This document shows, piece after piece, positions 6,444-54,473 of a DNA stretch of 64,000 nt. The stretch lies in assembly GCA_964493415.1 (NCBI GenBank), contig CAZBND010000009.1, forward strand, positions 13,866 to 77,865. Reading direction: 5' to 3'. The notes beneath the pieces are model-generated. The model was not told where the DNA came from. It did not search any database and was given only the letters and a program-made list of their open reading frames with translations. The position numbers and the translations under genes were made by a program. Every line of letters begins with the position of its first letter. The first letter of the stretch is position 1. Origin of the DNA: an uncultured Planctomycetota bacterium (GTDB lineage: Bacteria > Planctomycetota > DG-23 > CAZBND01).

Positions 6444-6444
6444 G

Positions 6445-10245: not shown

Positions 10246-10246
10246 C

Positions 10247-10546
10247 TCAGAGCCTCATCCCAAGTACTCTTTCCAATATCTCGCGCTCGGATTCCACTTC
10301 CAGCGGTCCTCCTGTGAGATCGGGAATCTCCACGATGCAAAGTTCACGGTTCTCGGTCAATAAGCGTTCGATATGCGTCCGGATTTTCTCGTAAATGCTT
10401 CGGCCGACGAGCACCATCGATTCCTCGATGACATATTCCTCGAGCGCGGCGCGTGCCGCCTCCTCATCTTCCACGGCACGCCCGGTTATGCCGGCCAGCC
10501 TCAATGCCGAGACAAGCGTCTCGTCGCCGATGCAGCGAATCCTCAT
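10247..10546 (-). CDS. atpF: A/V-type ATP synthase subunit F
   Basis: 99 aa, MRIRCIGDETLVSALRLAGI..., with a Rossmann-like V-ATPase F signature. Confidence 0.8.
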   Translation of the reverse strand: MRIRCIGDETLVSALRLAGITGRAVEDEEAARAALEEYVIEESMVLVGRSIYEKIRTHIERLLTENRELCIVEIPDLTGGPLEVESEREILERVLGMRL

Positions 10547-10933
10547 CTATATTTTCCCAAGCATTATGATCGCCACTATCAGCCCGTAAATGGCAATACC
10601 TTCCGCCAGACCCACGAAAATGATCGACCGGCCCATTAGCTCTGGCCTCTCGGCCACTGCCCCCATGGCCGCCGCGCCGACCGCCGCAACGGCAATCCCC
10701 GCAGCGATGCACGAGAGCCCTACCGCCACTGCCGCAGCAATGAATGCGTAGCCTGCATGCCCCGTGCCCTGAGAAACAGCCTCTGTCGCTCCTCCGCCTT
10801 GTTGCGCACGGGCGGGGCTAGGTGAGGCCAGGATTACCACGCCGATCACCAGCAGCACCAGAGCTACCCCACCCAAAAACGCGTTGCTCCTCAGACCCCA
10901 CTTACGGATGTCTTCCATTCCATTCCTCCTCAT
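10547..10933 (-). CDS. atpK: A/V-type ATP synthase proteolipid subunit K (c)
   Basis: Hairpin proteolipid with the Gly/Ala-rich helix GIAVAAVGAAAMGAV and the conserved carboxylate in GLAEGIAIYGLIVAII. It has an extra N-terminal hydrophobic segment. Confidence 0.85.
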   Translation of the reverse strand: MRRNGMEDIRKWGLRSNAFLGGVALVLLVIGVVILASPSPARAQQGGGATEAVSQGTGHAGYAFIAAAVAVGLSCIAAGIAVAAVGAAAMGAVAERPELMGRSIIFVGLAEGIAIYGLIVAIIMLGKI

Positions 10934-10945
10934 TCTCTTGCACGT

Positions 10946-12901: not shown

Positions 12902-12904
12902 CGG

Positions 12905-13939
12905 CTATTCTCCCGTGGCAATCGAGAGCAGGGGGCGGACCTCGTTCTCTGCCATTGCCAGCCGCTTCGCCGCGAGCACGGTCACGGCGTCTTCAATCAA
13001 CACTTCCTGGCGGATCAGGTATTTGACAAACGTCAGCAGGGCGAACGGAGAGCCAGGCCGCCGTACTCCTGCCGCCCGCAACGCATGTTTCCTGACTGCA
13101 ACCTCAAGATCATTCAGAGGCATCCGGCTCCCTCCAATGCTCGCCAATGTCTCCGACAGCCTTCCCTTCGGCAGCAAATCCACACATTCCCCAGGCGATT
13201 CCCCCTGCATTACCCGCCAGAATTGTGTTTCGCCGAATTCGTTGGTCGAAAACGCAACATAATGGAACACTTCCTGCGGCTCCATCCCGTAACCGAAGCG
13301 CAGCCGAAGCGCTTTCACAAAGTCCCTCAAACCCCATATGTCGTCAAAGAGGCCCGAGCGGACGCGTCTTCCTTCCCATCCCAAACTGTCCAATTCCTTC
13401 GCCAGCGCTCGTTCGTAACCAACTTCAATCGCAAGATCGAACGGAAGCAAACTCTCGCCTCCTGACAAGGCCGGGAGGGCTCTCCGAAGAACACCTTCCA
13501 GCCGCGTCCCGGATATGGCTCTCAACAGCGAGTCAAGTGTTCTGGCGTCCTCGAGCTTCCGCTCCTTCATCAAGACCGGCGGCCTGCTACGGGTTTCGGT
13601 ACTTGGTCCTTGCCGCGTCCGAATCTGTCTCACCTTGAACTTCAGCTTCCTGATGTCGGACTTCGCCACAGAGAACTCAAGGAATCTTCCTGAATGCCCA
13701 CGCATGAAGCGAGCGAGCTCTTTCCCCTGTTTCTCCCACTCACCCCATAACCAACTATCCACCTCGCCCGGCACGTCTGACGGGGGCTCGCTTCCCAGAG
13801 CCCGTGAGAGAGCCTCCACGCAATCCCCGAAGCTACCGGCTCCTAGCATCGTCTCCACCACGCTCTCCCGGAGCGAACGCGCCCTGAGCGCCCCAAGAAC
13901 AGGATATGCAGCAGAGTATGAGTACAGCCCCAGAGACAT
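12905..13939 (-). CDS. atpC: A/V-type ATP synthase subunit C (d)
   Basis: All-helical ~345 aa with MSLGLYSYSAAYPVLGALRAR at the N-terminus. Start set at the internal ATG (13939), which abuts the upstream gene's stop. Confidence 0.8.
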   Translation of the reverse strand: MSLGLYSYSAAYPVLGALRARSLRESVVETMLGAGSFGDCVEALSRALGSEPPSDVPGEVDSWLWGEWEKQGKELARFMRGHSGRFLEFSVAKSDIRKLKFKVRQIRTRQGPSTETRSRPPVLMKERKLEDARTLDSLLRAISGTRLEGVLRRALPALSGGESLLPFDLAIEVGYERALAKELDSLGWEGRRVRSGLFDDIWGLRDFVKALRLRFGYGMEPQEVFHYVAFSTNEFGETQFWRVMQGESPGECVDLLPKGRLSETLASIGGSRMPLNDLEVAVRKHALRAAGVRRPGSPFALLTFVKYLIRQEVLIEDAVTVLAAKRLAMAENEVRPLLSIATGE

Positions 13940-13941
13940 AG

Positions 13942-14256
13942 CTATCCACCGAGAAGCCTGCTCACCAGCTCTTCCGCCAGCCCCTCGCGCTCCTCCTCGA
14001 ACTTCTTCCTCCATCTAGCCAGGGCATCCTCGGTCTCGCGAAATATCTTCTTGCGGCTCTCCTCTGCGATGGCCCTCGCCTTATCGATCGCGTCTTTCCT
14101 TTCCCGCTCCATTCGCTTTCGCGCTTCTTCCTCTATCTTCTTTGCTTCTTCTTCTCCCGCGCTCTTCACCTTGTCGGCCTCTTCCTTCGCCCGCTGGATG
14201 ATCTTCTCCGCCTCCAGTTCGCTCCGTATGATTGCCTTTAGCTTGTCAGAACTCAC
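13942..14256 (-). CDS. A/V-type ATP synthase subunit G/H (peripheral stalk)
   Basis: 104-aa, highly charged single coiled coil (EEEAKKIEEEARKRMERERKD). It is the first gene of the operon and has a GTG start with AAGGAA upstream. Confidence 0.6.
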   Translation of the reverse strand: MSSDKLKAIIRSELEAEKIIQRAKEEADKVKSAGEEEAKKIEEEARKRMERERKDAIDKARAIAEESRKKIFRETEDALARWRKKFEEEREGLAEELVSRLLGG

Positions 14257-37972: not shown

Positions 37973-38086
37973 GCCATTGCGCTTGACACGCGACCTGCTC
38001 AACGGTATCGTACATTGGGCGCTTCAGGAGGTCTCCTGGGCGCTGATATGAGCCAAGGTCTTTGCTCCGCGACAGCGGGAGCCGGT

Positions 38087-38533
38087 ATGGCGCTCTTCAA
38101 GAAAAAGCCCAAGCAGCAAAAGCGCAAGATACTCATTGCCGAGGACAGCGACTTCCAGAGGGGTATACTGAAGGCCATTGTGGAGTCCGAGCCCGCTTTT
38201 AACGTCGTGGAGGCCCGCGACGGAGAGGAAGCCTGGAAGATCATCGAAAAACAGAAACTGGACCTGGTCCTTCTCGATGTGATGATGCCCAAGATCAACG
38301 GCTTGGACATCTGCTTCCGGATGAAGAACGACACTCGCTTCATGGGTATCCCGGTTATGATCGTGACGGCGTCCTCGAAAGACACCGGGAAAAGCGACGA
38401 ATACTGGCGGGATCGCTCACGCGCCGACGATTTCATAACCAAACCCTTCAAGTCCGTTGACATAATTCGGCGCATCAACAAACTCATCGAGCAATACAAG
38501 GCTGGAGCCGTGTCCAAGAGGTACAGGCTCTAA
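38087..38533 (+). CDS. cheY: CheY-like single-domain response regulator
   Basis: KILIAEDSDFQRGILKAIV...DLVLLDVMMPKINGLD...IVTAS…K matches the REC fold with its D-D-K residues. GGGAG SD. Start set at 38087 rather than the ORF-track 38015. Confidence 0.8.
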   Translation: MALFKKKPKQQKRKILIAEDSDFQRGILKAIVESEPAFNVVEARDGEEAWKIIEKQKLDLVLLDVMMPKINGLDICFRMKNDTRFMGIPVMIVTASSKDTGKSDEYWRDRSRADDFITKPFKSVDIIRRINKLIEQYKAGAVSKRYRL

Positions 38534-38551
38534 GGTTCAGCGGGCTTCCGA

Positions 38552-39331
38552 TTGAGGTGCATCGGCATCATCAATCAGAAAGGGGGGGTAGGCAAAACAA
38601 CCATCGCTGTCAATCTGAGTGCCGGATTGGCGACGTGCGGCCGAGAAGTATTGTTGATTGACCTTGACCCGCAGGCTAACTCGACTACGGCTCTGGGCTT
38701 CGAGGCGGATTTCAGTCGGCCAAGCGTTTATGACGTAATGGTCGATCGCGACAAGTCGCTCTCTTCGGTAATATCGGCGACCCATGTGCGGGGACTTCGG
38801 TTGGCCCCCTCAGACCTCAATCTTGCCTCCGTCGAGATTGCCCTCGCAAACTACCCGGGCAGGGAGGCGGTTCTTCGACGAAAGCTTGCTGGTGGTCTTT
38901 CCGGGTTCGACTATTGCATAATCGATTGTCCTCCTTCTCTGGGCCTCCTTACTGTCAACAGCCTGACTGCCGCCGATGAGGTGATAATTCCGATTCAGAT
39001 GGGATACTTCGCCCTCGAAGGGGTCAGGCAGTTGTTGCGGATAATCGACTTGGTAAAGGAGAACCTTGAGCACAGAGCACTACGAATCTGCGGCGTGGTT
39101 TGCAACTTTTTCGACGCGCGCTCTCGCCTTAGCAAAGAGGTCCTAAGCAAGGTACGCGAGCGCTTCGGCCCGCTTGTCTTCGATGCCGTCATTCGCAGGA
39201 GTGTCGCCCTTGATGAAGCAGCCAGCCACCACCAAACGATCTACGAGTACGCGCCTCGCTCTCGGGCGGCGAGGTCGTTTAGGGACTTGGTTCTGGAGGT
39301 AATAGGCAGTGAGTCCGGCCCTCGGGGATGA
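38552..39331 (+). CDS. ParA/MinD-family ATPase embedded in chemosensory operon (ParC/PpfA-like)
   Basis: Deviant Walker A NQKGGVGKTT, 259 aa, TTG start 18 nt after the CheY stop. It sits directly upstream of the cheW genes. Confidence 0.8.
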   Translation: MRCIGIINQKGGVGKTTIAVNLSAGLATCGREVLLIDLDPQANSTTALGFEADFSRPSVYDVMVDRDKSLSSVISATHVRGLRLAPSDLNLASVEIALANYPGREAVLRRKLAGGLSGFDYCIIDCPPSLGLLTVNSLTAADEVIIPIQMGYFALEGVRQLLRIIDLVKENLEHRALRICGVVCNFFDARSRLSKEVLSKVRERFGPLVFDAVIRRSVALDEAASHHQTIYEYAPRSRAARSFRDLVLEVIGSESGPRG

Positions 39332-40493
39332 CCCGCTTAAAGACAGCCTATTCAAAAAGACCGAGCTGCCGGTCTCCAAGTCCGAAATGGAGACCGCGGT
39401 CGCGCGCTTTGCCAACGCCTCCTCCGCGCCGTCGCCCGCATCGCAGCGTACTCGCTACATACTGGGCTTTAAGCTGGGCGACAGGGTCTTCGGGGCCGAG
39501 ATATCCCAGGTGGATACAGTCGTGAGAATGGTTTTCATTTCTCCCGTTCCTATGGCACCACAGTTCGTGGATGGCATCGTTAACGTCCGTGGCAACGTCG
39601 TGCCGGTCATTTCCCTGGCCAGACTCTTCGGGCTCCAGCATGGCAGGCCTCTCCTTGCTCGTCGGGTACTCGTGGGACGCTCAGGAGAGGAGCAAATCGC
39701 AATCGTGGTTGATTCGGTTTCTGAAATAATGGACATAGACCAAGCAGAGGTCACGCCCCCCTCGCCCTCGATGCCGATGGCAAGCGTGTGCGCCGGCGTC
39801 GCCAAATTGAGGCAGGCCGAGGGGGAGCTCATGATGATCTTAGACTTCGGAAAACTCCTCTCACTTGAACAGAAGGCTCTTCTGGAGGGCAAACTAGATC
39901 TCGAAGAGGTCTCGGCGGAACTAAGAGAAGAACAGCCGACGGGAGTTGCCGAGACCGAGCATGATGCAACAACTAACGTCCTTCGCAGGCGGGCCGAGTT
40001 GCTTAGTCTGCCGGTCGTCGATATCGAAAGGCAAACGCGCCGGATACTCACTTTCTCCATAGGTATGGAAGTCTACGGCTTGGACATAGCGACGGTCTGC
40101 CGGATACTCCGGACACGGGAGGTGACCCAGCTACCTTGTGCTCCAAACTACGTCCAAGGTGTGGTAAACTTCGACGGCGAAATTACTCCTGTCGTCGACC
40201 TCAAGGGCATGCTCGGCTTGGCGAAGGCGACGACGCAGCCGAGCGGCGGCAGGCTGGTCGTCGTTGAACACAAAGGCACGCTGGCCGCGTTCGCGGCCGA
40301 CGAGGTGTTCGACGTGCTGGAGATCGATCTCGAAAAAATCGAGGCGCCCTTGTCGACCATAGAGAAGCTAAGGGCTGACTTCATCGATGGAGAAGTACAG
40401 GTCGGGGAGAAACTGGTGATAATCCTGAACTGGCGAAACATAATGCTGTCCTGGGAGATGGGCAAGACGGCGGACGTCGGCGCCCGGACCTAG
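39309..40493 (+). CDS. cheW: Tandem CheW-domain coupling protein
   Basis: Two complete CheW modules ([23 protein letters not shown]… and [22 protein letters not shown]…). GTG start overlapping the parA-like 3' end. Confidence 0.8.
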
Positions 40494-40539
40494 CCGGGCG
40501 CCGCCACAGGTCGTCCCTCTAGGAGGAGGAACCCGAGCG

Positions 40540-42597
40540 ATGTTCAGATCCATCCGCGCGAAAGTGATGTTTGCCACGGCGGTCAACCTCGTGCTTCTCT
40601 TCGCAGTATTGTTGCTGATAGCTATGAATAGGGTCCGAGCAGCGGAGGCGGAGCGGAGGGAACACACCGAGATGGAGATTCAACATCTCCAGGGTGAAAG
40701 GAAGGAACTGGGCAAGTCGGTCACCTCCTCCGTGGCGAAGCAGGTGGCTGACGTATTGGCGCAAGGCTGGGACGTCGCCCGCGTGAATGAAATCCATGAT
40801 GACGAGAGCAGCAAGTTCCCCGCCATAAAGGAGATCGTGATTCGCGCAGCCGATAAGGCTACCGTCCCCACTTCCCCGGACGTGTCGAACGAACTGCTCG
40901 CCCAGGCAGCGCCACGCTCGGGCTCTCCCGACACCACCTACTGGAGGGATGACCTCCAAGACCCCGAAGTCTACGGCTACGTGCTGGAACCCATCACGAC
41001 CGAGCAAGGCGAGGTCAAAGGCCACGTTATCGCTTTCTTGAAGAGGCCGGGCGCGGCTCGGGACCTGGAAGAAGGCGTAATGGACGCCGGCACGATACTG
41101 GTGTACTTCTTGACCGGCTTCGCAGCAGTCGCCATCATAAGCATAATCTTTACGGAGCTGTTCCTCAGCCAAGGCCTCCTTAAACCGGTCCGTCTTCTGA
41201 CCGAGGCCGTAGGAAGAATTGTCAGGACTGGAAGTGTTTCAGAGACCATAGACGTCCGATCCAGTGACGAGATAGGCCGCCTCGGCAAGATGGCCGCCCA
41301 GATGCAGACAAACCTCAGCAGAATCGCAGACCATGCACATGCTATGGCCGAGGGCGACCTGAGCCAGGACATCCAAGTCCACGGGGATATGGCCGACGCA
41401 TTGCGCGAGATTCAGTCAAACCTCCTTACCATCACGGAGCAAGCCAGGGTCTACGCGCAAGGCGAGACGCCTGGAAAGCTCACAGTGAAAGGAGACCTGG
41501 GCAATGCATTTCGGGATATGGCGGCGCATGTTGATCAGATTCGCGAGCATGTCCAGGCAATCTCGCGAGGGGATATATACCACGAACTGAGGACTTCAGG
41601 TCAGCTTGCAGAAGATTTCCGCGAGATGACGCAGAATCTCAGAAAGATCGCAGAGGAAGCCAAAATCATCACTGCGGGTGACCTCACGCGGGCAGTCGAT
41701 GCCAAGGGAGAGCTTCCTGACGCCTTTAACGAGATGGTCAGGAGCCTGGCCTCACTCGTCAGCCAGATCCGCGACAGCGTTGGGCGCTTCGGCGCTCTGC
41801 TTGATGAGATCGTTCAGTCGGCAGAGCAGCAGGCAACCTACGCCACCCAACAGATCACCTCGCTGCTTGCGACTTCCTCCACGTCCGAGCAAATCGCCGC
41901 CACGTCTCGCCAGATCGCGAACAACGCGTCCGCCGTGGCTGCCATCGCGACAAGAACTCTCGACACGGCTCACGAAGGCAGAGAAGGAATGGACGAGGCG
42001 ATTCGGGCCATGGAGGACATCCGGGCGGGCACCGAAGAAGCCTCCAGCAGGATTCTCGCCGTCGAGCAGCGCGTCCAGGGAATCGGAGACGTCGTGGGCC
42101 TCATCAATGACATCACCGACCAGACGAATCTTCTTGCGTTGAATGCCGGCATAGAGGCCGCTCGGGCCGGCGAGGCCGGAAAAGGTTTCGGCGTTGTTGC
42201 GCAAGAGATCCGCCGCCTGGCCGAAAGCGTCATGGTACGTACCAAAGAGATAACCGACATCATTGACGAGATCCGAAGCTCCACCAGCGCCGCGGTGATG
42301 TCCAGCCAGGAAGAGAGAAAAAAGGTCGAGACCGGAATGCAGATTGCCACCAAGGCAGCGGACTCCCTGGAAGAAATCGTCGAAATGGCCGAGAAAACCG
42401 CAGAAGCGGCGAAGCAGATAAGTGTGTCAACACAGCAGCAGCAAAGCGCATCTGAACAGCTTTCCGCCACTCTTAAGGAAATTACCGAGGTCACCCAGCA
42501 GTCAACCGTAGGCTCCAAGAACACCATGACCTCCGCCGAGAAGCTTCGTCAGCTTGCCGGCGAATTACAGAGAGGCATCGGGCAGTTCCGAATATAA
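40540..42597 (+). CDS. mcp: Methyl-accepting chemotaxis protein with poly-HAMP array
   Basis: TM1 and a ~160-aa periplasmic segment, then TM2, five consecutive HAMP-like repeats (GDLS..I.V.GD..DAL...), and a C-terminal MCP signalling domain ([33 protein letters not shown]). AGGAGGAGG SD. Confidence 0.9.
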
Positions 42598-42621
42598 AGC
42601 TTCAGAAAAGCAGGAACGATC

Positions 42622-45372
42622 ATGACCGATATAGACCTTTCCGGCTTCATGGGCCGATTTAGAGACGAAGCAAAAGAGCTTCTGCAGAAGCTCACTGATG
42701 GCCTTCTCGCCCTCGAAAGGGACCCAAACGACAAGGAAGTCGTCGCGGAGATCACGCGGGCTGCCCACACGTTGAAGGGAAACGCGGGATTCCTCGAACT
42801 CACCGAGATAAACAAGATCGCGCACGCTATGGAAGATGTCTTGGCCGCCATTCGCGATGGCGAGGCCGAAATAACGCCGGAATTGTTCGACCTGCTTCTC
42901 TCCGCGCGCGATGAGATTGACAATCTCGTCCAGGCGACAGCCTCTCAAGAAACGGTTTCGGTTGATGCCGAAGGCATAGCCCAGCAATTGAGAGAGGCCG
43001 CTACGAAAAAGGAGGCGCCTTCTCCGCCGCACGGCGGCGAGCCTGCCGACGAGGCTGAAGAGGGCGAGGGGACGCAGAAAAAAAAACGTGCCACGGTAAC
43101 CCATAAAGGCAGACACAAGGCGGGGCCTGACAAACGCACTCTCCAGCACTTTCGCTCGGTCTGTTCCCGCATCACGCAACGACTCCGTGGCTCCCTCGCC
43201 GCGCTGGCGAAACCCTCGGATTTAGCCAAGATGGCTCAGGATGCTCACCGGCTATGCGACGCAGCGGCTTTGCTCGAGATCGACGAAGCCGTTCAACTCT
43301 CCGACGCTTTGGCCGCTGTGCTGGAAGCCTCCGAAGCAAGGGCGGCACTACCAACCCAAGAAGGGGTCGCCCTCATAGCTGAGTCAATAGACGCGCTTGA
43401 CGCGGCAAGTTCCCCCGAAGACCTTGCGAAACTGCCCCCGCTGGCCGAAAAGCTTTCTGCCTTGCCCGCTTCCGGCCCTTCGGCCGCCGCTTCTCCAGCC
43501 CAACGCCCGTCTTCAAAGCCGCCCGGAGGCGGTCACGCCTTACCTGAACGCACCGACAAGCAGCAAAGGATGGCTCGCGAAGAAACTCCAGACACCGTTC
43601 GTGTAAGCACCTCGCGCGTCGACACGCTGGTTAACCTCACCGGCGAGATAATCATCAACCAGCGGAAGGCAGAGGAGGAATCGGTCGAATTCAAAGAGAT
43701 TCTCGCATTATCCCGGCAAGAACGAAGACAGTGGGCATCTTTGCGTAGCAAGATGCTCGAACTGGCGCGCGTGGAGCCTGCGCTTGTTCCTTCACAGGGG
43801 AGGACTGCTCAGGCGGGAGAAGAGGAGTCGCTTGAGGAGCTCCTCGAAAGCCTCGAACTTGTAAGGACCGAGTTGAGCGACAGGTTGGCGAAATTCTCGG
43901 CCAGGTTCGAGGAGGTCGTCGGCAACCTCGGCGTCACTTCTACCAGGCTTCAGGAAGATGCCACCAGGATGAGGATGCTGCGTCTCGGCGTGTTGTTCGA
44001 CGTAATCCCCCGCGCCGTACGAGACATGGCGCGCCAATTCGGTAAGAAGATCGAGTGCAAGATCTCCGGCCAAGAAACCCTCCTGGATAAGAAAATGTTG
44101 GAGGGTCTGCGCGGTCCGCTCGTCCACATCATCAGAAACTCCGTAGATCACGGGATCGAGTACCCCCAAGAGCGCATTGAGGCGGGCAAGCCCGAGACCG
44201 GCCTAATTGAGATGACCGCCCAGCAGGAAGGTGACCGCGTAACTGTTCAGATTCGCGACGACGGCGCTGGTATCGACCCCGAAAAGGTCATTCGGAAAGC
44301 TCTCGAGCAGGGGATCGTTGACTCGGTTGAAGCCCAGACCATGTCCCCTGAGGCCGCCCTGTACCTGGTGTTTGAGCCCGGATTCACCACGCGGGCAGTC
44401 GCAAGCGATGTCTCGGGGCGCGGCGTCGGTATGGATGTTGTGCGCAAGGATATCGAGGACCTCAAGGGTGAAGTGACTCTGGCCTCCGAGGCGGGCGCGG
44501 GAACCACCGTATCCATAAGACTGCCGCTCACGCTTGCAGTCATACCTACTCTCTTGGTTGAGTGCACCGGACAGAAGTATGCGCTGCCTTCGTCATCCGT
44601 GAAAAAAGTCATCGAGATCAGCCCCAGTGAAATCCATTCGGTCGAGGGACGCGAGGCGATCGTCTGCGATGGCAGGACCGTTCCCCTTGTTTCAATGAAA
44701 GACGTGTTACGTCTGCAAGGCGAGTCCGCTGCACCCGCCCGGGGCAAACTCGATGTCGTAATAGTGTCCCATGCCCAGGACGAAATCGGGTTCCTTGTCG
44801 ATACTATCGCAGGAGAGCAGCGTCTGGTCGTAAAAAACCTCGCGGGCAACTTGGGTCACATAGACAACGTTGCCGGCGGGGCCAGCCTCGGGACAGGAGA
44901 GGTGGTCATAATACTTCACCTTCCCGATCTGATTGCTTCGGCCAAAGCCTCCGCTCCCAGGAGACTTGTGGAGGAGCTGACAAAGCGGCTCGCGCCGGTT
45001 GAAAGGCGCGGCAGAATCCTCGTCGTCGAAGACTCGCTCACCACCCGCGAGTTGCAGCGGAGCATCCTCGAGGCAGCGGGATATCAGGTCGAAGTCGCCG
45101 TGGACGGACTTGACGGCCTGCGCAAGGTCAGCGACGCCAATTACGATTTGGTGATCACGGACGTCGCCATGCCCAGGATGGACGGCTTCGAAATGGTCCA
45201 GCGCATAAAGCGCGATCCTAGAAGGAAGGCCGTACCCGTGATCATCGTCACTTCACGTGCCACAGAAGCTGATAAGAAGCGCGGCATGGCCGTCGGCGCA
45301 GACCAATTCATCGTGAAGAGCCAATTCGATCAGTCCACCTTCCTCGAAATGGTATCCCAATTTGTTGGATGA
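42622..45372 (+). CDS. cheA: Hybrid histidine kinase CheA with C-terminal receiver (FrzE-like); tandem Hpt
   Basis: Hpt-1 (AAHTLKGNAGFLEL), an Ala/Pro/Glu-rich linker containing a second Hpt-like block (DAHRLCDAAALLEID), a dimerisation domain, an HATPase domain (G-boxes), a CheW-like domain and a REC domain (ILVVEDS…DLVITDVAMPRMDG). 916 aa. Confidence 0.9.
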   Translation: MTDIDLSGFMGRFRDEAKELLQKLTDGLLALERDPNDKEVVAEITRAAHTLKGNAGFLELTEINKIAHAMEDVLAAIRDGEAEITPELFDLLLSARDEIDNLVQATASQETVSVDAEGIAQQLREAATKKEAPSPPHGGEPADEAEEGEGTQKKKRATVTHKGRHKAGPDKRTLQHFRSVCSRITQRLRGSLAALAKPSDLAKMAQDAHRLCDAAALLEIDEAVQLSDALAAVLEASEARAALPTQEGVALIAESIDALDAASSPEDLAKLPPLAEKLSALPASGPSAAASPAQRPSSKPPGGGHALPERTDKQQRMAREETPDTVRVSTSRVDTLVNLTGEIIINQRKAEEESVEFKEILALSRQERRQWASLRSKMLELARVEPALVPSQGRTAQAGEEESLEELLESLELVRTELSDRLAKFSARFEEVVGNLGVTSTRLQEDATRMRMLRLGVLFDVIPRAVRDMARQFGKKIECKISGQETLLDKKMLEGLRGPLVHIIRNSVDHGIEYPQERIEAGKPETGLIEMTAQQEGDRVTVQIRDDGAGIDPEKVIRKALEQGIVDSVEAQTMSPEAALYLVFEPGFTTRAVASDVSGRGVGMDVVRKDIEDLKGEVTLASEAGAGTTVSIRLPLTLAVIPTLLVECTGQKYALPSSSVKKVIEISPSEIHSVEGREAIVCDGRTVPLVSMKDVLRLQGESAAPARGKLDVVIVSHAQDEIGFLVDTIAGEQRLVVKNLAGNLGHIDNVAGGASLGTGEVVIILHLPDLIASAKASAPRRLVEELTKRLAPVERRGRILVVEDSLTTRELQRSILEAAGYQVEVAVDGLDGLRKVSDANYDLVITDVAMPRMDGFEMVQRIKRDPRRKAVPVIIVTSRATEADKKRGMAVGADQFIVKSQFDQSTFLEMVSQFVG

Positions 45373-45378
45373 GCTGCA

Positions 45379-46419
45379 ATGATTCGCGTTCTGGTCGTTG
45401 ATGATTCCGCCACGGCAAGGGAGCTTTTGAAAAAAGTCCTCGAGAGCGACCCGGAAATCGAGGTCGTCGCTAGCGCCTCCAACGGGCGAGAGGCAATAGA
45501 GTTGGTCCGTCGGGTCAAACCCGACATCGTCACGATGGACCTCCTGATGCCCGTCATGAACGGGTTCGAGGCAACCGAGCACCTGATGGCCTTCGATCCT
45601 CTTCCCATACTGGTAGTGACGGGCTGCCCGGTCGGAAGGGAAGCCGACCTCGCGTTCAAGGCTCTCGAGCTTGGCGCATTGGAAGTAAATGAGAAACCGG
45701 AGAGCTCGTCTTTGCAGAAACCCACCCGGCGCTCGATGGCTCTGATAAGAAACGTCAGAACGCTCTCAAAAGTCCAGGTGATAACCCACCTTCGAGGCAG
45801 GCGTGGTGCGGCGGACAGGCACGCTCACCCTCCCGAAGCAAAGGGAGAAAGGAGGCTTGTGGTCATAGCCTCCTCCACCGGCGGACCGCCCGTGCTGGAG
45901 AAGATCTTCTCCTCCTTGCCGCCCGAGTTCCCCGCTCCCATAGTCGTTGTTCAGCACATCGCTGACGGTTTCACGGGAAGGCTCGTGGAATGGCTCGGGA
46001 AGTCCTCGCCTCTTCCCGTCCGCGAAGCCGGTCACAGACAGCCTTTGAATGGCGGTACCATAAGCCTCATCCCGGACGGGCATCATGGTACAATAACCAG
46101 TAATGGAGCCATCTCCCTTAACACCGACCCCCCTGTTGACGGCGTGCGGCCGTCGGGCGACCTGCTCTTCAAGTCGGCCGCCAGGGCCCGCGGCCAAGAT
46201 GTCGTCGCAGTCGTCCTCACCGGAATGGGACACGACGGCGCGGAGGGGGCGAGAGTGGTGAGGGCGTTCGGAGGTACCGTAATCGTCCAGAACAAAGAGA
46301 CTTGTGCGATCTTCGGAATGCCCAGAGCGGTCATTCAGGAAGGGCTTGCTGACGCCGTAGTACCGGATGTTGATATTTCCGCCGAGCTGGTCAAAGCCAT
46401 ATCGAGAGCCGAACGGTGA
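45379..46419 (+). CDS. cheB: Chemotaxis response regulator protein-glutamate methylesterase
   Basis: REC domain (RVLVVDDSATAREL...) plus the CheB methylesterase catalytic domain (VVIASSTGGPPVLEKI, HDGAEGA). Confidence 0.9.
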   Translation: MIRVLVVDDSATARELLKKVLESDPEIEVVASASNGREAIELVRRVKPDIVTMDLLMPVMNGFEATEHLMAFDPLPILVVTGCPVGREADLAFKALELGALEVNEKPESSSLQKPTRRSMALIRNVRTLSKVQVITHLRGRRGAADRHAHPPEAKGERRLVVIASSTGGPPVLEKIFSSLPPEFPAPIVVVQHIADGFTGRLVEWLGKSSPLPVREAGHRQPLNGGTISLIPDGHHGTITSNGAISLNTDPPVDGVRPSGDLLFKSAARARGQDVVAVVLTGMGHDGAEGARVVRAFGGTVIVQNKETCAIFGMPRAVIQEGLADAVVPDVDISAELVKAISRAER

Positions 46420-46539
46420 AATCTCTCCGCCCCGTCGCAATGGGGCCGATTCCCGTTGTTCGTGTGTTGGCGCTTGTTCGGTAGGGTCATCAGGGCCGTC
46501 GCCCGGTCGGATGCTCATCGTTAGGAGGCAACTTCACAG

Positions 46540-48042
46540 ATGGCTTTTCACCCAAGAGCACAACTGGGACTTTCCAGAGCTGAGCTTGAGCCTTTCGAAA
46601 CATTCGTCTTCAACCGAACCGGATTCCGATTCGACAGGCAACGTCGGATAGCTCTTGACGTTGCGATCCTCTCAAGAATGTCCGCTTTGAGGATTGCAAC
46701 ATCACGGGAGTACTACAACTTCCTTCGCTTCCATGAAAAGCGACACGAGGAATTTCAGGAGCTGCTTGGTCTTGTAACCGTCAGCGAAACGTCTTTTTTC
46801 CGAAACCAGCCTCACTTTGACGCCCTCCACCGGCGCATATTGCCCGAGCTTTTTGAGAGAAATCAGGCCGGCACCAAGGCGGTTCGGATCTGGAGTGCCG
46901 GCTGCTCCACCGGCGAAGAGCCTTACTCCATCGCTATAGCTTGCCTCGAGGCGCTGCCGGCGCTTCAAGCTTGGAACACCGAGATTCTCGGAACCGACAT
47001 CGTCAGACGCGTTCTTACCGTTGCCGAGAAAGGCGTTTACTCCTCTCACTCGCTTCGCCAGATGTCTCCCGCCGTTATGGATGCTTACTTCAGTAAGACC
47101 GACCAGGGCCAATATGAACTCTCCCCGCGCGTGAGGAAAATGGTCAAATTCCTTCAGGCGGATGTGACGCGCGAACCGAGAACAGGCGTCGTCGGCGACG
47201 GTTGGGACATAATCTTTTGCCGCAACGTCCTCATATACTTCACTGACGAAGTCTTCCATTCAATAGTCCGGCACTTCCACCAGATTCTCAATCCGGGGGG
47301 ATACCTGTTCCTTGGCCATGCGGAGATGTTGTCCGGGATGGTTGAGAACGAATTTCTCTTGCGGGAGATGGAGTCGACATTTGTGTATCAGAAGCCGCCG
47401 GCTGAACAGCCTGGAAGGACCTTGCGAGTAGCTCATCCTCCCCGCAAACACCCAAGCCCGCCCCGCCCGGCTCCCCGGACGGCCGAATCCAAACAGCCTG
47501 AAATCAAGCCCACACATTCGCCTGTCTTGGCGAGAGCTCACCAGCACTATGCCTCAAAACGCTACGACAGGGCTCTGGAAGAAGTTCTCCAAGTGCTTCA
47601 ACGAGACCCCACCAACATCGATGCTCTCTTCCTCGTCGGCAAGATTCACGCCGACATGGGACACGGCGAGGAGGCCGCCGAGAAACTCCACCAGTTGACT
47701 GTGCTCTCGCCTCTCCATGCCGAGGCCTACTACCATCTCGGGATCGTCTACGTACGTCAGGGGAAGTCCGAGGCTGCGATCGATGCGTTCAAGAGAGCTA
47801 TTTACTCGGACAGCGAATTCGGGTTGGCCCACATGCACCTCGGCAACGTCTACCGCCAGAAAGGACGCCCCAGGGAGGCGTTGCGCAGCTACAGGAATGC
47901 CATTGCTGCCTTGACCAAGACTCCCGAAGATAGGCTGATGCGCATCTCTGACGGTTTCTCGAAGGATGTCCTTATCGGCACGTGCAGGGCCTACATGGAT
48001 GATTGTCGCGAGAACCTCAGCTCCATCGAGTACTTAGGGTGA
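46540..48042 (+). CDS. cheR: Chemotaxis protein methyltransferase CheR fused to TPR repeats (FrzF-like)
   Basis: CheR N-terminus and SAM-binding domain (IWSAGCSTGEEPYSIAI, IFCRNVLIYF), then C-terminal TPR repeats (AEAYYHLGIVYVRQGKSEAAIDAFKRAI...). TAGGAGG SD. Confidence 0.85.
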   Translation: MAFHPRAQLGLSRAELEPFETFVFNRTGFRFDRQRRIALDVAILSRMSALRIATSREYYNFLRFHEKRHEEFQELLGLVTVSETSFFRNQPHFDALHRRILPELFERNQAGTKAVRIWSAGCSTGEEPYSIAIACLEALPALQAWNTEILGTDIVRRVLTVAEKGVYSSHSLRQMSPAVMDAYFSKTDQGQYELSPRVRKMVKFLQADVTREPRTGVVGDGWDIIFCRNVLIYFTDEVFHSIVRHFHQILNPGGYLFLGHAEMLSGMVENEFLLREMESTFVYQKPPAEQPGRTLRVAHPPRKHPSPPRPAPRTAESKQPEIKPTHSPVLARAHQHYASKRYDRALEEVLQVLQRDPTNIDALFLVGKIHADMGHGEEAAEKLHQLTVLSPLHAEAYYHLGIVYVRQGKSEAAIDAFKRAIYSDSEFGLAHMHLGNVYRQKGRPREALRSYRNAIAALTKTPEDRLMRISDGFSKDVLIGTCRAYMDDCRENLSSIEYLG

Positions 48043-48045
48043 TCC

Positions 48046-48783
48046 ATGTGTGCGACCTTTCGTCTCGACGCGCAAGTTGCCCTCGTAACCGGAGGGGGGA
48101 GGGGAATCGGAAAAGCAATTGCCCTTGCCTTAGCAGCCGAGGGGGTCAGCGTCGCCGTTGCCTCAAGGACCTTGTCTGAATTGCAGGAGGTAGCGGCGCT
48201 GGCCGAGCAACTCGGGGCGAAGGCCCTCCCGATTCAGGCTGATGTCACGAAGGCGGACGAAGTAGACCGCATGATCGCGCGCACGGAATCCAGCCTGGGC
48301 CCGCTCGACCTTCTTGTCAACAATGCCGGCCGACTTCCTCTCGCGACCATACTCGAAACATCGGAGGAGGACTGGGATAAGACCACCGCAGTTAACCTCA
48401 AGGCCGCCTTCCTCTGCTCCAAAGCGGCTCTGGCCCGAATGGCCGAACGCAGGCGCGGGCGAATCATCATCATTTCGTCTCTCGCCGGCAAGAAGCCTTA
48501 TCCTGGACAGAGCGCCTACTGCGCCTCGAAGCACGGATTGGAGGGATTTGCCAAAGTGCTTGCGATCGAGGCAAAGGAATACAACGTCAGGGTGCAAGTG
48601 GTCTCGCCGGGAGGCGTGAACACCAAGCTCACCAGAGACGCCCGGAAAGACGTCGACGTCTCTGAATGGATGCGCCCCGACGAGGTCGCACGAGCCGTTA
48701 TCTACCTTTGCTCTCAGGAAGGCACCGCCGTAAGTGATGAAATAGTCCTGAGGCGCTGGGAGTCCGCTCCCTGGACTCACTAG
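48046..48783 (+). CDS. SDR-family oxidoreductase (FabG-like)
   Basis: TGGGRGIGKAIA Rossmann motif and S...YxxxK catalytic triad (YCASK); 245 aa. Confidence 0.8.
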   Translation: MCATFRLDAQVALVTGGGRGIGKAIALALAAEGVSVAVASRTLSELQEVAALAEQLGAKALPIQADVTKADEVDRMIARTESSLGPLDLLVNNAGRLPLATILETSEEDWDKTTAVNLKAAFLCSKAALARMAERRRGRIIIISSLAGKKPYPGQSAYCASKHGLEGFAKVLAIEAKEYNVRVQVVSPGGVNTKLTRDARKDVDVSEWMRPDEVARAVIYLCSQEGTAVSDEIVLRRWESAPWTH

Positions 48784-48785
48784 AT

Positions 48786-49910
48786 TCAGACGGCCCTGCC
48801 GCCTTCTCCGCTCTCGAAAAGGATTCCCTTGAATCTCATCTCCAGTGCGTCAGCGTTCGGCGACACCTCGAGGGCCACCTCCCGGTCGACGTATCCGTCC
48901 TTTACCAGCTCAAAGAGTGACGTGTTGAAGTCAAGCATCCCCTCGGTCCTCCCCGCCTTGATACAGTCGCCTAGCTCCACCTCTCTCCCGTCTCCGATCG
49001 CCTTTTTCACCGGCGGATTCACGAGCATCACCTCTACGGCAGGCACTCTCGAAAACTCTTCCCTTATGCAAGGCAACAATCTCTGGCACACAACCGCCCT
49101 AAGGTGGAACTGAAGCGCATGCCTGACCTGTTGGTGCTCGGTGGAAGGGAACATATCCAGAATTCTGCCAATGGTCTGGGCCGCGGTGGAACTATGAAGG
49201 GTACTCAGCACTAGGTGCCCCGTCTCTGCCGCGGCCAGCCCGAACTGAAGCGTCTCAGAATCTCGCATTTCTCCAACCAGGAGCACATCCGGGTCCTGCC
49301 TCACGGCGTATTTTATGGCCTCGTGGAAGGAAGTGACGTCGATTCCCACCTCTCGCTGGTTGATGTAGGCTTTCTTGTTGGCGTAAAGGTACTCTATCGG
49401 ATCTTCTATAGTAAGTATGTGACACCGGCGACTGAGGTTGATGTGTTCGACCATAGCCGCGAGCGTCGTCGATTTCCCGCTTCCGGTCGTGCCCGAAACT
49501 ATCACGAGCCCATGCTCGAGCGATGCGATCTCCTTGAGGATCGGCGGGAGATGCAGTTCCTCGAACGTCGGTATCGCCGTATTCACGCGGCGCGCGGCCA
49601 AAGCCAAGCTTCCTCGTTGCCGGAAAGCGTTCAACCGGAATCTTCCTTCGCCCTTGATGCCGTAAGCCAGGTCCACGCTGCCCGTCGCTTCCAACTGTGC
49701 CGATTGTTGTTCAGTCAGGATGCTGCGGACGTAGTTCTCCAGTTCGCCTCGGCTCAGCGGCGGAGCCTTCAACTCTCTGAGCTTCCCCGCCAACCGTACC
49801 CTTGGTGCCGATTGCACCTGGAGATGCAGGTCGGAAGCGCCGTGCTTCGGAAGCGACTTCAGGAGCTGTTCCATCTTCTCGCGATAGAAGGCTCTCTCTT
49901 CTCCCATCAC
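48786..49910 (-). CDS. pilT: Type IV pilus retraction ATPase PilT (twitching motility / DNA-uptake motor)
   Basis: Walker A GTTGSGKSTT, Asp box, His box, and a PilT-type N-terminus (ASDLHLQVQSAPRVRLAG). Confidence 0.85.
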   Translation of the reverse strand: MMGEERAFYREKMEQLLKSLPKHGASDLHLQVQSAPRVRLAGKLRELKAPPLSRGELENYVRSILTEQQSAQLEATGSVDLAYGIKGEGRFRLNAFRQRGSLALAARRVNTAIPTFEELHLPPILKEIASLEHGLVIVSGTTGSGKSTTLAAMVEHINLSRRCHILTIEDPIEYLYANKKAYINQREVGIDVTSFHEAIKYAVRQDPDVLLVGEMRDSETLQFGLAAAETGHLVLSTLHSSTAAQTIGRILDMFPSTEHQQVRHALQFHLRAVVCQRLLPCIREEFSRVPAVEVMLVNPPVKKAIGDGREVELGDCIKAGRTEGMLDFNTSLFELVKDGYVDREVALEVSPNADALEMRFKGILFESGEGGRAV

Positions 49911-50239: not shown

Positions 50240-51208
50240 CTATCCCTGTCGTATGTTGGCTCTCCCGTCTCCGCACGCGTTTTCTATCATTCTATCAACG
50301 TCCGCAAAGCAAGCTATCTCGCTCGCCCCGCTTTCCAGTAGCTGCAGGTTTCCCTCGCTCTTCTTTCCCGTCCTCTTGCGGCCTAATGCGAATACGGGCT
50401 TCCCAAGTGACCGGGCAACCCTAGCAGTATATACTGCGCCGCCGTCCCGCACGCTCTCCACCACGAAGACGGCGCGAGCCATTGCGGCGACAAGTGAGTT
50501 CCGCCGCATCGCGGCCCCGACCTTCCACTCCTGAAATGGGGGGAAGGGTGACAACAGCGCTCCCGAGTCCGAGATTGTCTCGGGTTCTCGGAACTCTCGC
50601 GTGGGAGGCACCTTTCCCAGCCCCGTGGCCGGAAAGGCCACCGTTCTCCCTCCTGCCGAAATGGCCCCGAAATGCGCTGCCGAGTCGACTCCTCTGGCAA
50701 AGCCGCTGATTACTGTGCATCCTCTCCGTGCTGCTCGCCTTGCCGATTCGAGGGCAGCATGTCGCCCTTCTTCCGTAGGATGCGTAGCCCCAACCATCGC
50801 CAGGCCCCATTGGTCTTCCTCGTTGAGCTCGCCCCGCACGAAAAGAAGTGGGGGAGGGTGCTCCAGCGCCTTGAGTGCCTGCGGGTAATTGGCGTCGCCG
50901 TCAGACACTACTCCTATGCCGGTCTTCCCGAGTTCGACCAGCATCGTCCGCCAGCGGGGGAGCTCTTCCCGAAGCCTCAGAACGGCATCGGCGGTCTTCG
51001 CCCCTATTCGGGGCAGGCTCAGGAGCGGTCTTCTTCGCGCATTGCGGATCGCCTCTCGGCACGTCCCATATGCGTTGCGAATTTCCTCGAACAATGCGGG
51101 CCCCACCCCGTCAGTGCATGCCAGCGCGACCCGGCACACAAGTTCGGCGTCCGTTGGTTCTACGTCAGATTCCGAAACCATGCCAAATCCCGGTCTGCGT
51201 GTCTTCAC
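50240..51208 (-). CDS. dprA: DNA-processing protein A (DprA/Smf)
   Basis: Rossmann-like DprA core (VISGFARGVDSAAH…GGRTVAFPATGL) with an N-terminal SAM-like region; 322 aa. Confidence 0.85.
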   Translation of the reverse strand: MKTRRPGFGMVSESDVEPTDAELVCRVALACTDGVGPALFEEIRNAYGTCREAIRNARRRPLLSLPRIGAKTADAVLRLREELPRWRTMLVELGKTGIGVVSDGDANYPQALKALEHPPPLLFVRGELNEEDQWGLAMVGATHPTEEGRHAALESARRAARRGCTVISGFARGVDSAAHFGAISAGGRTVAFPATGLGKVPPTREFREPETISDSGALLSPFPPFQEWKVGAAMRRNSLVAAMARAVFVVESVRDGGAVYTARVARSLGKPVFALGRKRTGKKSEGNLQLLESGASEIACFADVDRMIENACGDGRANIRQG

Positions 51209-52895: not shown

Positions 52896-53597
52896 CTACT
52901 CGGCGGCCTCCTCCGGAGACGGCATGATCACGATTTCCACCCGGCGATTCTGGCTCTTCCCCTCTTCGGTCTTGTTGTCGGCCACCGGCCTGAACTTGCT
53001 GTAGCCGCTGACAAAGAACTGCTCCTCGGGAAGCTTCTTTTCTTCGACAAGATAGTGAAGCACCGCCAGTGCCCGCGCGGTCGATAGCTCCCAGTTCGTC
53101 GGGAACAGTTTCTTGGTCTCCGGCCTTTTTATGGGCACGTTGTCAGTATGACCCTCTATCCCGACCGCGTTCCCTGCGAAATCCGTCCTAAGAACGTCGC
53201 TTATCTTGTCCAGCGTCGCCTTTGCGTCCGCCTTGATCGTCGCCTTCCCCGTATCGAAGAACACCTTCGAGAGCAGCGTCATCACCAGACGACCTTCTTT
53301 GATGCTGACGCCGACCTGCGTGCCCCTCAACTGTTCCTCCAATTTCGACTTGGTCCTCTCGAGCTCGCCTTCGCGCTGTGCCATCTTGCTCATTTGGCTC
53401 TGCAGTTCCTGGTTCTTTGCTTGCATCGCCGCGAGCTGCCGCTCCACCTCGTAATTCTCCGCCTTTAGCTCCTGAAGCAAGCTCTCATACTGCCGATTCT
53501 TGGCCCGCAGTTGCCCACGCGTCTCGCAACCCGCGGCCAACACAGCAGTCAACACCAAAGCCAAGCCCAATAGGTACACTCGCGCATGAAACCGCAT
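52896..53597 (-). CDS. OmpA/MotB-domain lipoprotein with coiled-coil spacer
   Basis: Lipobox LAAGC after MRFHARVYLLGLALVLTAV, a ~100-aa coiled coil, and an OmpA_C domain (GHTDNVPI...NRRVEIVI). AGGAGAGG SD. Confidence 0.8.
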   Translation of the reverse strand: MRFHARVYLLGLALVLTAVLAAGCETRGQLRAKNRQYESLLQELKAENYEVERQLAAMQAKNQELQSQMSKMAQREGELERTKSKLEEQLRGTQVGVSIKEGRLVMTLLSKVFFDTGKATIKADAKATLDKISDVLRTDFAGNAVGIEGHTDNVPIKRPETKKLFPTNWELSTARALAVLHYLVEEKKLPEEQFFVSGYSKFRPVADNKTEEGKSQNRRVEIVIMPSPEEAAE

Positions 53598-53639
53598 TTC
53601 CACACCTCTCCTTTCTTGCACCCGCTCTACTAGGTCCGA

Positions 53640-54473
53640 CTACATTCCGCCTGCATAAACCGCCGCCAGAAAAGCCCAAATCTCGTCGCCGTAAAAGGTA
53701 ACCGCTACCGCCGCAGCGGAAAGGAACGGCCCGAACGGAATCACTCTCTGCCTTCTTCTTAACAGCAGCGCAATGCCGAATGCCGCCGCGATTATCGCTC
53801 CGAGGAAGAACGTCATTATGGCTCCCTGCCACCCCAGAAATCCACCAACCATTCCCATCAGCTTAACGTCGCCTCCTCCCATTGCCTCCTCCTGCAGAAC
53901 AAGCTTGCCCAGGAAGCCGACGATGTAGAGCATCCCTGCGCCCACCGCGATTCCTATCACGCAAGCGATCAGCGAATCGAGCCTTTCCTTCCCCGGCCCA
54001 GATCCCAGCAAAGAGAACTCCTCGTGAAGCCCGGGAACAACGACGCTCATCACGGGAGCCAGCGCCATTCCTCCGAGCGTGATCCTGTCGGGGATTATCT
54101 GGAGCTCTATATCGGTGAACGTCGAGACCACCAGCCCGGCAACGAGAAACAGATATGCCCCCACGAGGCCATATGAATACCCTTCCAAAGCCCTGAGCTT
54201 GTAGGCCGCAAATGCGAACAATGCGCCCGTCACGCTCTCGACAAGCACGTATCTCGCGGATATGCCCGCTTTGCACCTCCTGCACCTCCCCCCCAGCGCC
54301 AGGAAGCTGAATATCGGTATGTTGTCGTACCATTCTATCGGTGTTCCGCACAACGGGCAGTGCGACCCAGGCTTCACGATTGACAGCCCCCTCGGGAGCC
54401 TGTAGATGCACACGTTCATAAAGCTGCCGACACAAGTTCCTAGAGCGAAGAATAGGAGGGTCTCCCACCACAT
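53640..54473 (-). CDS. pilD: Prepilin peptidase (A24 family)
   Basis: N-terminal tetra-Cys region (CxxC...CxxC: HCPLCGTPI... RCRRCKA) and polytopic peptidase A24 core with catalytic Asp residues; 277 aa. Confidence 0.85.
   Translation of the reverse strand: MWWETLLFFALGTCVGSFMNVCIYRLPRGLSIVKPGSHCPLCGTPIEWYDNIPIFSFLALGGRCRRCKAGISARYVLVESVTGALFAFAAYKLRALEGYSYGLVGAYLFLVAGLVVSTFTDIELQIIPDRITLGGMALAPVMSVVVPGLHEEFSLLGSGPGKERLDSLIACVIGIAVGAGMLYIVGFLGKLVLQEEAMGGGDVKLMGMVGGFLGWQGAIMTFFLGAIIAAAFGIALLLRRRQRVIPFGPFLSAAAVAVTFYGDEIWAFLAAVYAGGM

Follow-up and report, generated by a model that had tools for sequence, protein, structure and literature searches.

A Soj-type ParA ATPase gene paired with a tandem-CheW gene in a chemosensory cluster of an uncultured Planctomycetota bacterium

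ParA/MinD ATPases position many bacterial cargos, but studies of chemoreceptor-array positioning cover only two systems, the proteobacterial ParC/ParP and PpfA/TlpT. In Rhodobacter (Cereibacter) sphaeroides, the activating N terminus is reportedly that of the soluble receptor TlpT. In ParP, an N-terminal ParC-binding domain is followed by a long Pro-rich linker and, at the C terminus, by a CheW-like domain that becomes part of the array (PMC5706961), and ParA/MinD partner proteins bind the ATPase through a charged, disordered N terminus (PMC10241942). EFExLLD repeats of CheA have been tied to ParP binding in Pseudomonas putida (preprint 10.1101/2025.10.27.684771). Apart from the statement on TlpT, our accounts of ParC, ParP, and PpfA are drawn from these three sources and PMC11407121. 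Here, we describe a chemosensory gene cluster with an internal ParA-type ATPase gene in a 64,000-nucleotide stretch of DNA from an uncultured Planctomycetota bacterium (contig CAZBND010000009.1, assembly GCA_964493415.1). This whole stretch is called the window below.

Seven co-directional genes on the + strand exactly fill positions 38087-48042, as determined by open reading frame (ORF) listing and Pfam and NCBIfam scans. They encode, in order, CheY, a ParA-type ATPase, a tandem CheW (CheW2), a methyl-accepting chemotaxis protein (MCP), a hybrid CheA-REC, CheB, and a CheR-TPR fusion. A first-pass annotation, made from the sequence without database searches, had listed exactly these genes, and the profile scans agreed with it. 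The limits that it gave also held, as 38087 is the start codon of CheY and 48042 ends the stop codon of CheR-TPR. We consider it fairly likely that two of these genes form a positioning module, in which a Soj-derived ParA and a tagged tandem CheW place a membrane array of class 40H receptors.

The ParA-type ATPase and the tandem-CheW adaptor

The ATPase gene (38552..39331, + strand) begins with TTG and encodes a ParA/Soj-type deviant Walker A ATPase of 259 amino acids with AAA_31/CbiA matches. The protein matched the Soj structures 8ray (5.7e-55) and 1wcv (7.7e-48) and keeps the KGGVGKT motif, the Asp of Walker B, and the Arg that corresponds to Soj R189. With the TTG at 38552 as start, the segment MRCIGIINQKGGVGKTT (window 38552-38650) is restored, and the resulting protein aligns with the Soj structures from residue 2. 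We preferred this start because a later one would cost the KGGVGKT P-loop. Metagenome gene callers annotate the ParA-like gene as encoding 226 amino acids, with a start past the Walker A motif (L001, 6030-6710; L029, 343-1023; L numbers denote the loci compared in this study).

A search with the ParA protein returned three tiers of matches: orthologues with 71-80% identity, a group with 52-61% identity, and thousands of chromosome-partitioning ParA/Soj proteins with approximately 45-52% identity. All four members of the 52-61% group that were looked up lie directly upstream of a gene for a tandem CheW of 370-425 amino acids in a che cluster. Adjacency of parA and cheW2 was observed in at least eight lineages, represented by Planctomycetota and Elusimicrobia metagenome-assembled genomes (MAGs), and in every lineage examined (L003/L015, L009/L011, L006, L016, L022, L007/L012, and L017 besides the window). 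Among these, L016 came from the metagenome scan and carries the same pair. The parA stop codon and the cheW2 start codon overlap by 4-47 nt in five lineages.

We aligned 17 che-linked sequences with 86 canonical ParA/Soj sequences and constructed a neighbor-joining (NJ) tree. The che-linked sequences split from canonical ParA as a clade (bootstrap 39/50) with the signature residues G151, F186, D221, A224, H227, and T229. These correspond to the substitutions E151G, M186F, S221D, P224A, G227H, and P229T relative to canonical ParA, several of which map to the C-terminal segment 214-235. At these positions, the canonical consensus reaches 63-100% conservation (E151, 99%; M186, 95%; G227, 100%). 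The ATPase of the window is an intact Soj-type ParA of a separate clade, which is always encoded beside a tandem-CheW gene.

The closest relatives in sequence are the ATPases of ParABS systems, with 45-52% identity and the same deviant Walker A, Walker B, and DNA-binding Arg. An ordinary chromosome-partition ATPase, or a regulator unrelated to the array, that lies in the operon by chance would also keep every catalytic residue and this Arg. This explanation is nevertheless highly improbable. No parB gene or ParB domain was found in the window or in the related loci inspected, and the partner here is a CheW scaffold. The parA gene is located beside the tandem-CheW gene in all lineages examined, which belong to two phyla, and the clade-specific substitutions include E151, M186, and G227, residues that are 95-100% conserved in canonical ParA. 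A genuine parAB pair looks different: the canonical relative with 49% identity (L024) adjoins parB near dnaA and yidC.

The tandem-CheW gene (39309..40493, + strand) overlaps the end of parA by 23 nt and encodes an adaptor of 394 amino acids. Two full-length CheW domains were detected with Pfam at residues 51-186 (profile positions 2-136 of 138) and 246-378 (2-133 of 138). In an AlphaFold2 (AF2) model, the two CheW folds had a predicted local confidence (pLDDT) of about 80, and residues 1-46 (pLDDT < 50) were disordered; at a predicted TM-score (pTM) of 0.44, the mutual orientation of the two domains is uncertain.

The 18 N-terminal residues (39309..39362, + strand) are conserved across the family and are proposed to be a ParA-binding, ATPase-stimulating tag. 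The consensus is M-x-x-[AP]-L-G-x-[DN]-P-L-[KR]-x-[ST]-L-F-[KR]-[KR]-T, or LGxDPL[KR]xSLF[KR][KR]T in short form. The columns L5, G6, P9, L10, S13, L14, F15, and T18 are invariant in eight lineages, and one further family member has Thr at S13. Among 12 sequences, this segment is the best conserved part of CheW2: its mean majority fraction is 0.78, whereas the two CheW folds reach 0.60 and 0.59 and the linker 0.43. The lineages that share the tag are otherwise only 29-38% identical in the tandem CheW. The linker after the tag is variable in length and is rich in Pro and Ala in several lineages. As judged from the sequence, the tandem CheW is laid out like ParP and like ParA partner proteins in general, with a putative tag, a disordered tether, and CheW domains.

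An exhaustive HMMER search of 1.84 billion representatives returned only about 13 clusters with the tag, and the tandem-CheW family is therefore rare. Most of the other high-scoring matches were unrelated proteins with 3-5 CheW domains. Degenerate-pattern scans for the tandem CheW found two species among genome contigs and nine loci in metagenomes; these scans under-count, as they missed at least one real member, L022 (LGNDPL). The tag resembles the N terminus of the ParB encoded at L024, GLGRGLGSLIPHT, in its LG...L...L[FI] pattern and basic residues. We treat this likeness as a lead and not as evidence of homology because the spacing differs from LGRGLxxL by one residue per gap.

A difference between the two CheW domains was also observed. 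At residues 287-290 (window 40167-40178), the second CheW domain of the window clade carries NF[DE]G, whereas other lineages, the first CheW domain, and Aeromonas CheW carry N[LV]RG. The Arg of N[LV]RG presumably corresponds to R62 of E. coli CheW, and its loss suggests functional divergence of the two CheW domains in the window lineage.

We compared the pair with ParC and ParP using a mislabelled Aeromonas caviae chromosome in PLSDB (L026), in which parC and parP were identified by synteny and domain content. The gene order there is cheY-cheZ-cheA-cheB-motC-motD-parC-parP-cheW, which we take to be a classical F6 polar-flagellar cluster. Both systems have a ParA-family ATPase gene in a che operon, directly followed by the gene of a CheW-domain protein with an N-terminal ATPase-binding region (putative here) and a flexible tether (PMC5706961), and in both the receptor arrays are membrane-bound. 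However, the window ATPase shared 33% identity with Aeromonas ParC (146 bits) and 49% with a parB-linked ParA (228 bits). Mean identities were 32% between the che-linked clade and ParC, 35% between ParC and canonical ParA, and 45% between the che-linked clade and canonical ParA. The window CheW domains matched Aeromonas CheW (E 8e-23 and 4e-16), but the ParP AIF domain gave no match (E 0.22). The tag LGxDPLKxSLFKKT does not resemble the N terminus of ParP, AMDDYFHSLLLDD, and the window CheA is without EFExLLD/LID repeats. The hosts also differ: ParC/ParP is found with F6 systems of Vibrio, Pseudomonas, and Aeromonas (Gammaproteobacteria), whereas the present module is found in Planctomycetota and Elusimicrobia with a CheA-REC/CheR-TPR architecture. 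Considering the ATPase identities, the AIF mismatch, the different N terminus, and the lack of EFExLLD repeats, the resemblance to ParC/ParP is functional and architectural and does not reflect orthology. The array-positioning role that the first-pass annotation drew from ParC and PpfA is supported, but the ATPase is no orthologue of ParC.

The PpfA/TlpT system was set apart by its description. Its cargo is a cytoplasmic array, whereas every receptor associated with the present module is transmembrane. The candidate activating N terminus here is located on the tandem CheW and not on a receptor as in TlpT, and the N termini of the module-linked MCPs are transmembrane (TM) segments. No ParA gene was present in a Phaeobacter plasmid che cluster (L027).

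Receptor, kinase, and class of the pathway

The receptor gene (40540..42597, + strand) encodes a transmembrane MCP of 685 amino acids with Pfam HAMP and MCPsignal matches. The protein is composed of TM1, a periplasmic domain of approximately 140 amino acids, TM2, HAMP and HAMP-like repeats, and a signalling hairpin, with the TM segments lying within the hydrophobic stretches 5-36 and 180-215. The periplasmic domain had no Pfam match. A PilJ-N match in the HAMP region (E 9e-4) was below the cut-off and was rejected. The hairpin tip is at E545, and the MCP was assigned to class 40H because its C-terminal arm comprises exactly 140 residues, which corresponds to 20 heptads. Candidate methylation motifs are present at 450, 632, and 639, and no C-terminal pentapeptide was found in the MCP. 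Two TM helices are present in all module-linked MCPs, and the arms measure 140-143 amino acids in the five whose C terminus is complete. The MCP signalling domains of the module-bearing loci are 42-48% identical to that of the window.

The hybrid CheA-REC (42622..45372, + strand; 916 amino acids) contains Hpt, dimerisation, HATPase, P5/CheW, and REC domains. The first Hpt domain has His49, the dimerisation domain is extended, and there is no P2 domain. A second, degenerate Hpt domain (residues approximately 173-261, window 43138-43404; His209 in HRLCD; E 0.003) keeps the His but has lost the K and G of HxLKG, whereas its counterpart in L022 is intact (AAHTLKGS). The EF[ED]xxLL[DE] motif is absent from this CheA, as are the ParP-associated repeats. 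Adaptation enzymes are encoded downstream. CheB (45379..46419, + strand) is a methylesterase with an N-terminal REC domain (NF001965, 325 bits versus a cut-off of 293; Pfam CheB_methylest and Response_reg), and CheR (46540..48042, + strand) is a methyltransferase (Pfam CheR, 189 bits) with a C-terminal TPR region matching several TPR families at residues 320-470. We found no CheZ, CheC, CheX, CheD, or CheV.

This architecture agrees with that of systems for alternative cellular functions (ACF): CheA-REC without P2, multiple Hpt domains, CheR-TPR, and no auxiliary phosphatases. ACF clusters hold most CheR-TPR genes (PMC3447774), the ACF and type IV pilus (Tfp) classes account for 93% of multi-Hpt kinases (PMC10782961), and ACF CheAs with the same domain order exist in Planctomycetota, such as that of Gemmata with 977 amino acids (PMC10782961 supplement). 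The multidomain response-regulator output of ACF systems is missing, as only a single-domain CheY is encoded, although some ACF systems also use single-domain regulators (PMC3447774). According to a published survey, F5 kinases carry duplicated CheW domains.

An NJ tree of CheA was constructed with 102 database matches labelled by source annotation (WspE, ChpA, PixL, and CheA; no Frz sequences were included). The window CheA clade stood apart (distance to all other sequences at least 1.08) and grouped with no labelled sequence. The CheA P3-P5 core was also compared by tblastn with PLSDB, where the reference loci were Aeromonas F6, Ralstonia Wsp (L028), Acinetobacter ChpA, and E. coli F7. F6 CheAs gave 257-265 bits at a coverage of 74-77%, a genuine WspE gave 219 bits, and ChpA gave 186 bits. 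These scores (186-265 bits) do not discriminate between classes. Because the F6 scores are slightly higher and CheA is isolated in the tree, the non-flagellar assignment was based on architecture. By this measure, the pathway would be of the ACF/Tfp type and non-flagellar in style, and the CheA sequence itself gives no placement.

The F6 scores are the highest obtained for the CheA core and would fit flagellar (F class) chemotaxis, in which the array would be brought close to a polar flagellum by the ParA/CheW pair, as it is by ParC/ParP in F6 systems. ParC/ParP is indeed known in flagellar systems (PMC5706961; Aeromonas L026), and a single-domain CheY together with a full CheB/CheR adaptation set would serve such a pathway. 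We regard this alternative as unlikely. The F6 scores cover only 74-77% of the core and may just reflect conserved P4/P5 domains, and the CheA REC domain, the two Hpt-type domains, the lack of P2, and CheR-TPR are ACF/Tfp features (PMC10782961, PMC3447774). The auxiliary proteins CheZ, CheC, CheX, CheD, and CheV are missing. None of the large ORFs scanned in the 64-kb window is flagellar, which bears out the same statement in the first-pass annotation.

That annotation had instead assigned the cluster to a Frz architecture and associated it with Tfp motility. Such a system would set the reversal frequency of this motility, and FrzA and FrzB would be fused in its tandem CheW. The order CheW-CheW-MCP-CheA/REC-CheB-CheR(TPR) is colinear with frzA-B-CD-E-G-F, CheA-REC and CheR-TPR are both present, and the receptor is of class 40H, as are FrzCD and WspA (PMC3945109). 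The likeness ends at three proteins. FrzCD is cytoplasmic, whereas the window receptor has two TM segments, a periplasmic domain, and HAMP repeats. FrzB is truncated and lacks the CheA-binding (P5) region (PMC6952110), whereas both CheW domains of the window protein are full length, and its interpretation as a FrzA-FrzB fusion was rejected for this reason. In place of the dual-REC FrzZ, the only free receiver in the cluster is the single-domain CheY of 148 amino acids, and the large ORFs scanned in the window include no FrzZ-like protein. Both FrzB and FrzZ occur only in Cystobacterineae (PMC4546325).

Moreover, the gene content is generic. Frz, Wsp, and Rhodospirillum centenum Che3 all have CheA-REC, CheR-TPR, CheB, several CheW domains, and a 40H receptor, and all lack CheZ, CheC, CheD, and CheV (PMC2577667, PMC3447774, PMC3945109). 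The gene order W-MCP-A-B-R is likewise found in Wsp and Che3-type clusters. The GGDEF output of Wsp has no equivalent here. The CheA core clusters with no labelled relative and is about equally distant from the labelled ACF-type relatives in the NJ tree and in tblastn. To our knowledge, no ParA gene is present in Frz, Wsp, or Che3 systems.

A PilT/PilU-family ATPase gene (48786-49910, - strand; TIGR01420, 415 bits versus a cut-off of 319), dprA (50240-51208, - strand), and an A24 prepilin peptidase gene (53640-54473, - strand), the latter two identified by profile scans, lie within 6.5 kb downstream of the cluster; the first-pass annotation had pointed out these neighbours. They are interleaved on the minus strand with purine and OmpA-like genes. 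The functional link that it drew from this proximity is weak: pilT is on the opposite strand behind a short-chain dehydrogenase (SDR) gene and is absent at the corresponding position in L002, a relative whose CheA is 61% identical. No pilus genes were found near the module within the 8-10 kb inspected in L006, L007, L017, and L022. A Frz-type system controlling Tfp motility is therefore quite improbable.

Operon layout, surroundings, and related loci

A sigma-70-like promoter candidate, TTGACA-17 nt-TATCGT, is located at 37983..38011 (+ strand) within the 114-nt gap between dnaE and cheY. It matches the consensus at 10 of 12 positions, which is the best in the region, and is a consensus match only. 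No terminator-like site on the + strand was detected between the che genes; the sole such site (43769-43783) lies inside cheA. The intergenic gaps are at most 120 nt. The candidate promoter, the lack of intergenic terminator-like sites, and the overlapping or tightly spaced genes together suggest that the cluster is transcribed as one operon.

The first gene encodes a single-domain CheY-like response regulator of 148 amino acids (38087..38533, + strand; Pfam Response_reg, 85 bits), in which the acidic pocket, the phospho-acceptor Asp, and the conserved Thr and Lys are all visible. A REC gene precedes parA in five loci examined (window, L015, L011, L012, and L017), and in L022 it is placed after cheA instead. 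Residues 1-14 of CheY (window 38087-38128) form a basic N-terminal extension, MALFKKKPKQQKRK, whose LFKK echoes SLFKKT of the CheW2 tag. The extension is kept in the window clade (L015 and L011) and absent from the CheYs of L012 and L017. We rejected it as a second ParA tag of the family because its conservation is limited to the window clade; the resemblance may be due to chance, or the extension may be a lineage-specific second tag.

The SDR gene (48046..48783, + strand; adh_short, 215 bits) starts 4 nt past cheR-TPR. Its position is kept in three related contigs (L002, L003, and L015), and it is not beside the che genes in L006 or L022; the 3' ends of the L007/L012 and L017 loci were outside the region in view. 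The SDR gene may be co-transcribed with the che operon, and its membership in the system is not demonstrable.

An OmpA-domain protein encoded at 52896-53621 (- strand) adjoins the prepilin peptidase gene and gave sub-threshold matches to MotB/MotD/MotS (126 bits; cut-offs 264-301). No motA gene was found near it. These matches were rejected as evidence of a flagellum because they fall below the cut-offs and there is no motA nearby, and the protein is probably a peptidoglycan-binding anchor. Thirty other large ORFs were scanned and included V-type ATPase, argJ, cysS, dnaE, shikimate enzyme, feoB, and similar housekeeping genes. An operon for a V/A-type ATPase (subunits D, B, A, E, I, and C) is located at 5802-14014 (- strand), and rubrerythrin and CdhD-like genes are also present. 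These genes are consistent with an anaerobic lifestyle of the host.

An ENA metagenome contig (ERZ27256778:k141_1315769) carries a CheA 100% identical to that of the window in an identical gene order. Relatives with CheA 77% and 61% identical share the synteny of the window, and the latter is an uncultured Planctomycetota MAG. The loci of the window clade are L003/L015 and L009/L011. More distant loci retain the core of the cluster: L006 encodes ParA, CheW2, MCP, and CheA-REC, and L022 (Planctomycetota MAG GCA_027625095.1) encodes the same four proteins plus a REC gene. In L007/L012 (Elusimicrobia UBA5214) and L017, the order is REC, ParA, CheW2, 4-5 inserted genes, MCP, and CheA-REC, with CheB in L012. 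All complete module-bearing loci also encode CheA-REC; L016 and L011 stop short of cheA. Besides GCA_027625095.1 and the assembly of the window, the module is carried by the MAGs GCA_964622675.1 and GCA_002412545.1.

The genes inserted between cheW2 and mcp-cheA in L007 (10079-14666; also in L012) encode a multiheme cytochrome, a PorV-like protein, a porin-like protein, and a protein of 228 amino acids, and L017 carries a similar insertion. They hint at a link between the module and extracellular electron transfer or outer-membrane functions.

Proposed positioning of the receptor array

In the positioning module that we propose, a complete, methylation-adapting chemosensory pathway would carry its own two-gene positioning device in one operon. 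By analogy with ParB, ParP, McdB, and MinE, the tag would bind the ATP-bound ParA dimer and stimulate its ATPase. The CheW domains would insert into the receptor/CheA lattice, and the whole membrane array would thereby become the cargo of ParA. The array could then be positioned, counted, or passed to the daughter cell relative to the nucleoid or the pole. Phosphorylated CheY, the REC domain of CheA, or both would act on a target not apparent from the window. The module would perform the task of ParC/ParP after independent recruitment from a chromosomal ParA lineage. An array-positioning role for the internal ParA had already been suggested in the first-pass annotation, and this suggestion is strengthened by the constant parA-cheW2 pairing across distant lineages and by the conserved tag on a disordered tether.

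Several observations weigh against this interpretation. In L012 and L017, 86-223 nt lie between parA and cheW2, and 4-5 unrelated genes lie between cheW2 and mcp. The bootstrap value of the ParA clade is only 78%, and the CheA core scores slightly higher against F6 CheAs than against WspE or ChpA. The contact between the tag and ParA is presumed from analogy with partner proteins. A purely nucleoid-based mechanism in the style of PpfA is also less obvious because all MCPs of the family are membrane proteins. For ParC, HubP serves as the anchor at the pole. No new principle would be involved, and what goes beyond gene content and conservation we infer.

More tentatively, and with less confidence than in the positioning role itself, the module may represent a second, independently evolved ParA system for chemoreceptor arrays. 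In this scenario, a chromosomal ParA paralogue was captured by a chemosensory operon, a ParB-like activating peptide was grafted onto a tandem CheW, and the membrane array is partitioned in the manner of a plasmid, with the nucleoid as reference. The system would be confined to a few uncultured lineages of Planctomycetota and Elusimicrobia.

If these proposals are correct, a different ParA lineage gave rise once more to the combination of an ATPase and a tagged array component, in a pathway of non-flagellar type and in phyla with unusual cell biology. The tag and the clade-specific ATPase residues would form a surface pair for partner specificity, which relates to the question of how several ParA systems operate in one cell without crosstalk. 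The tag of approximately 18 residues and its cognate ATPase would then offer a compact, sequence-defined system for studying how ParA systems gain new cargo.

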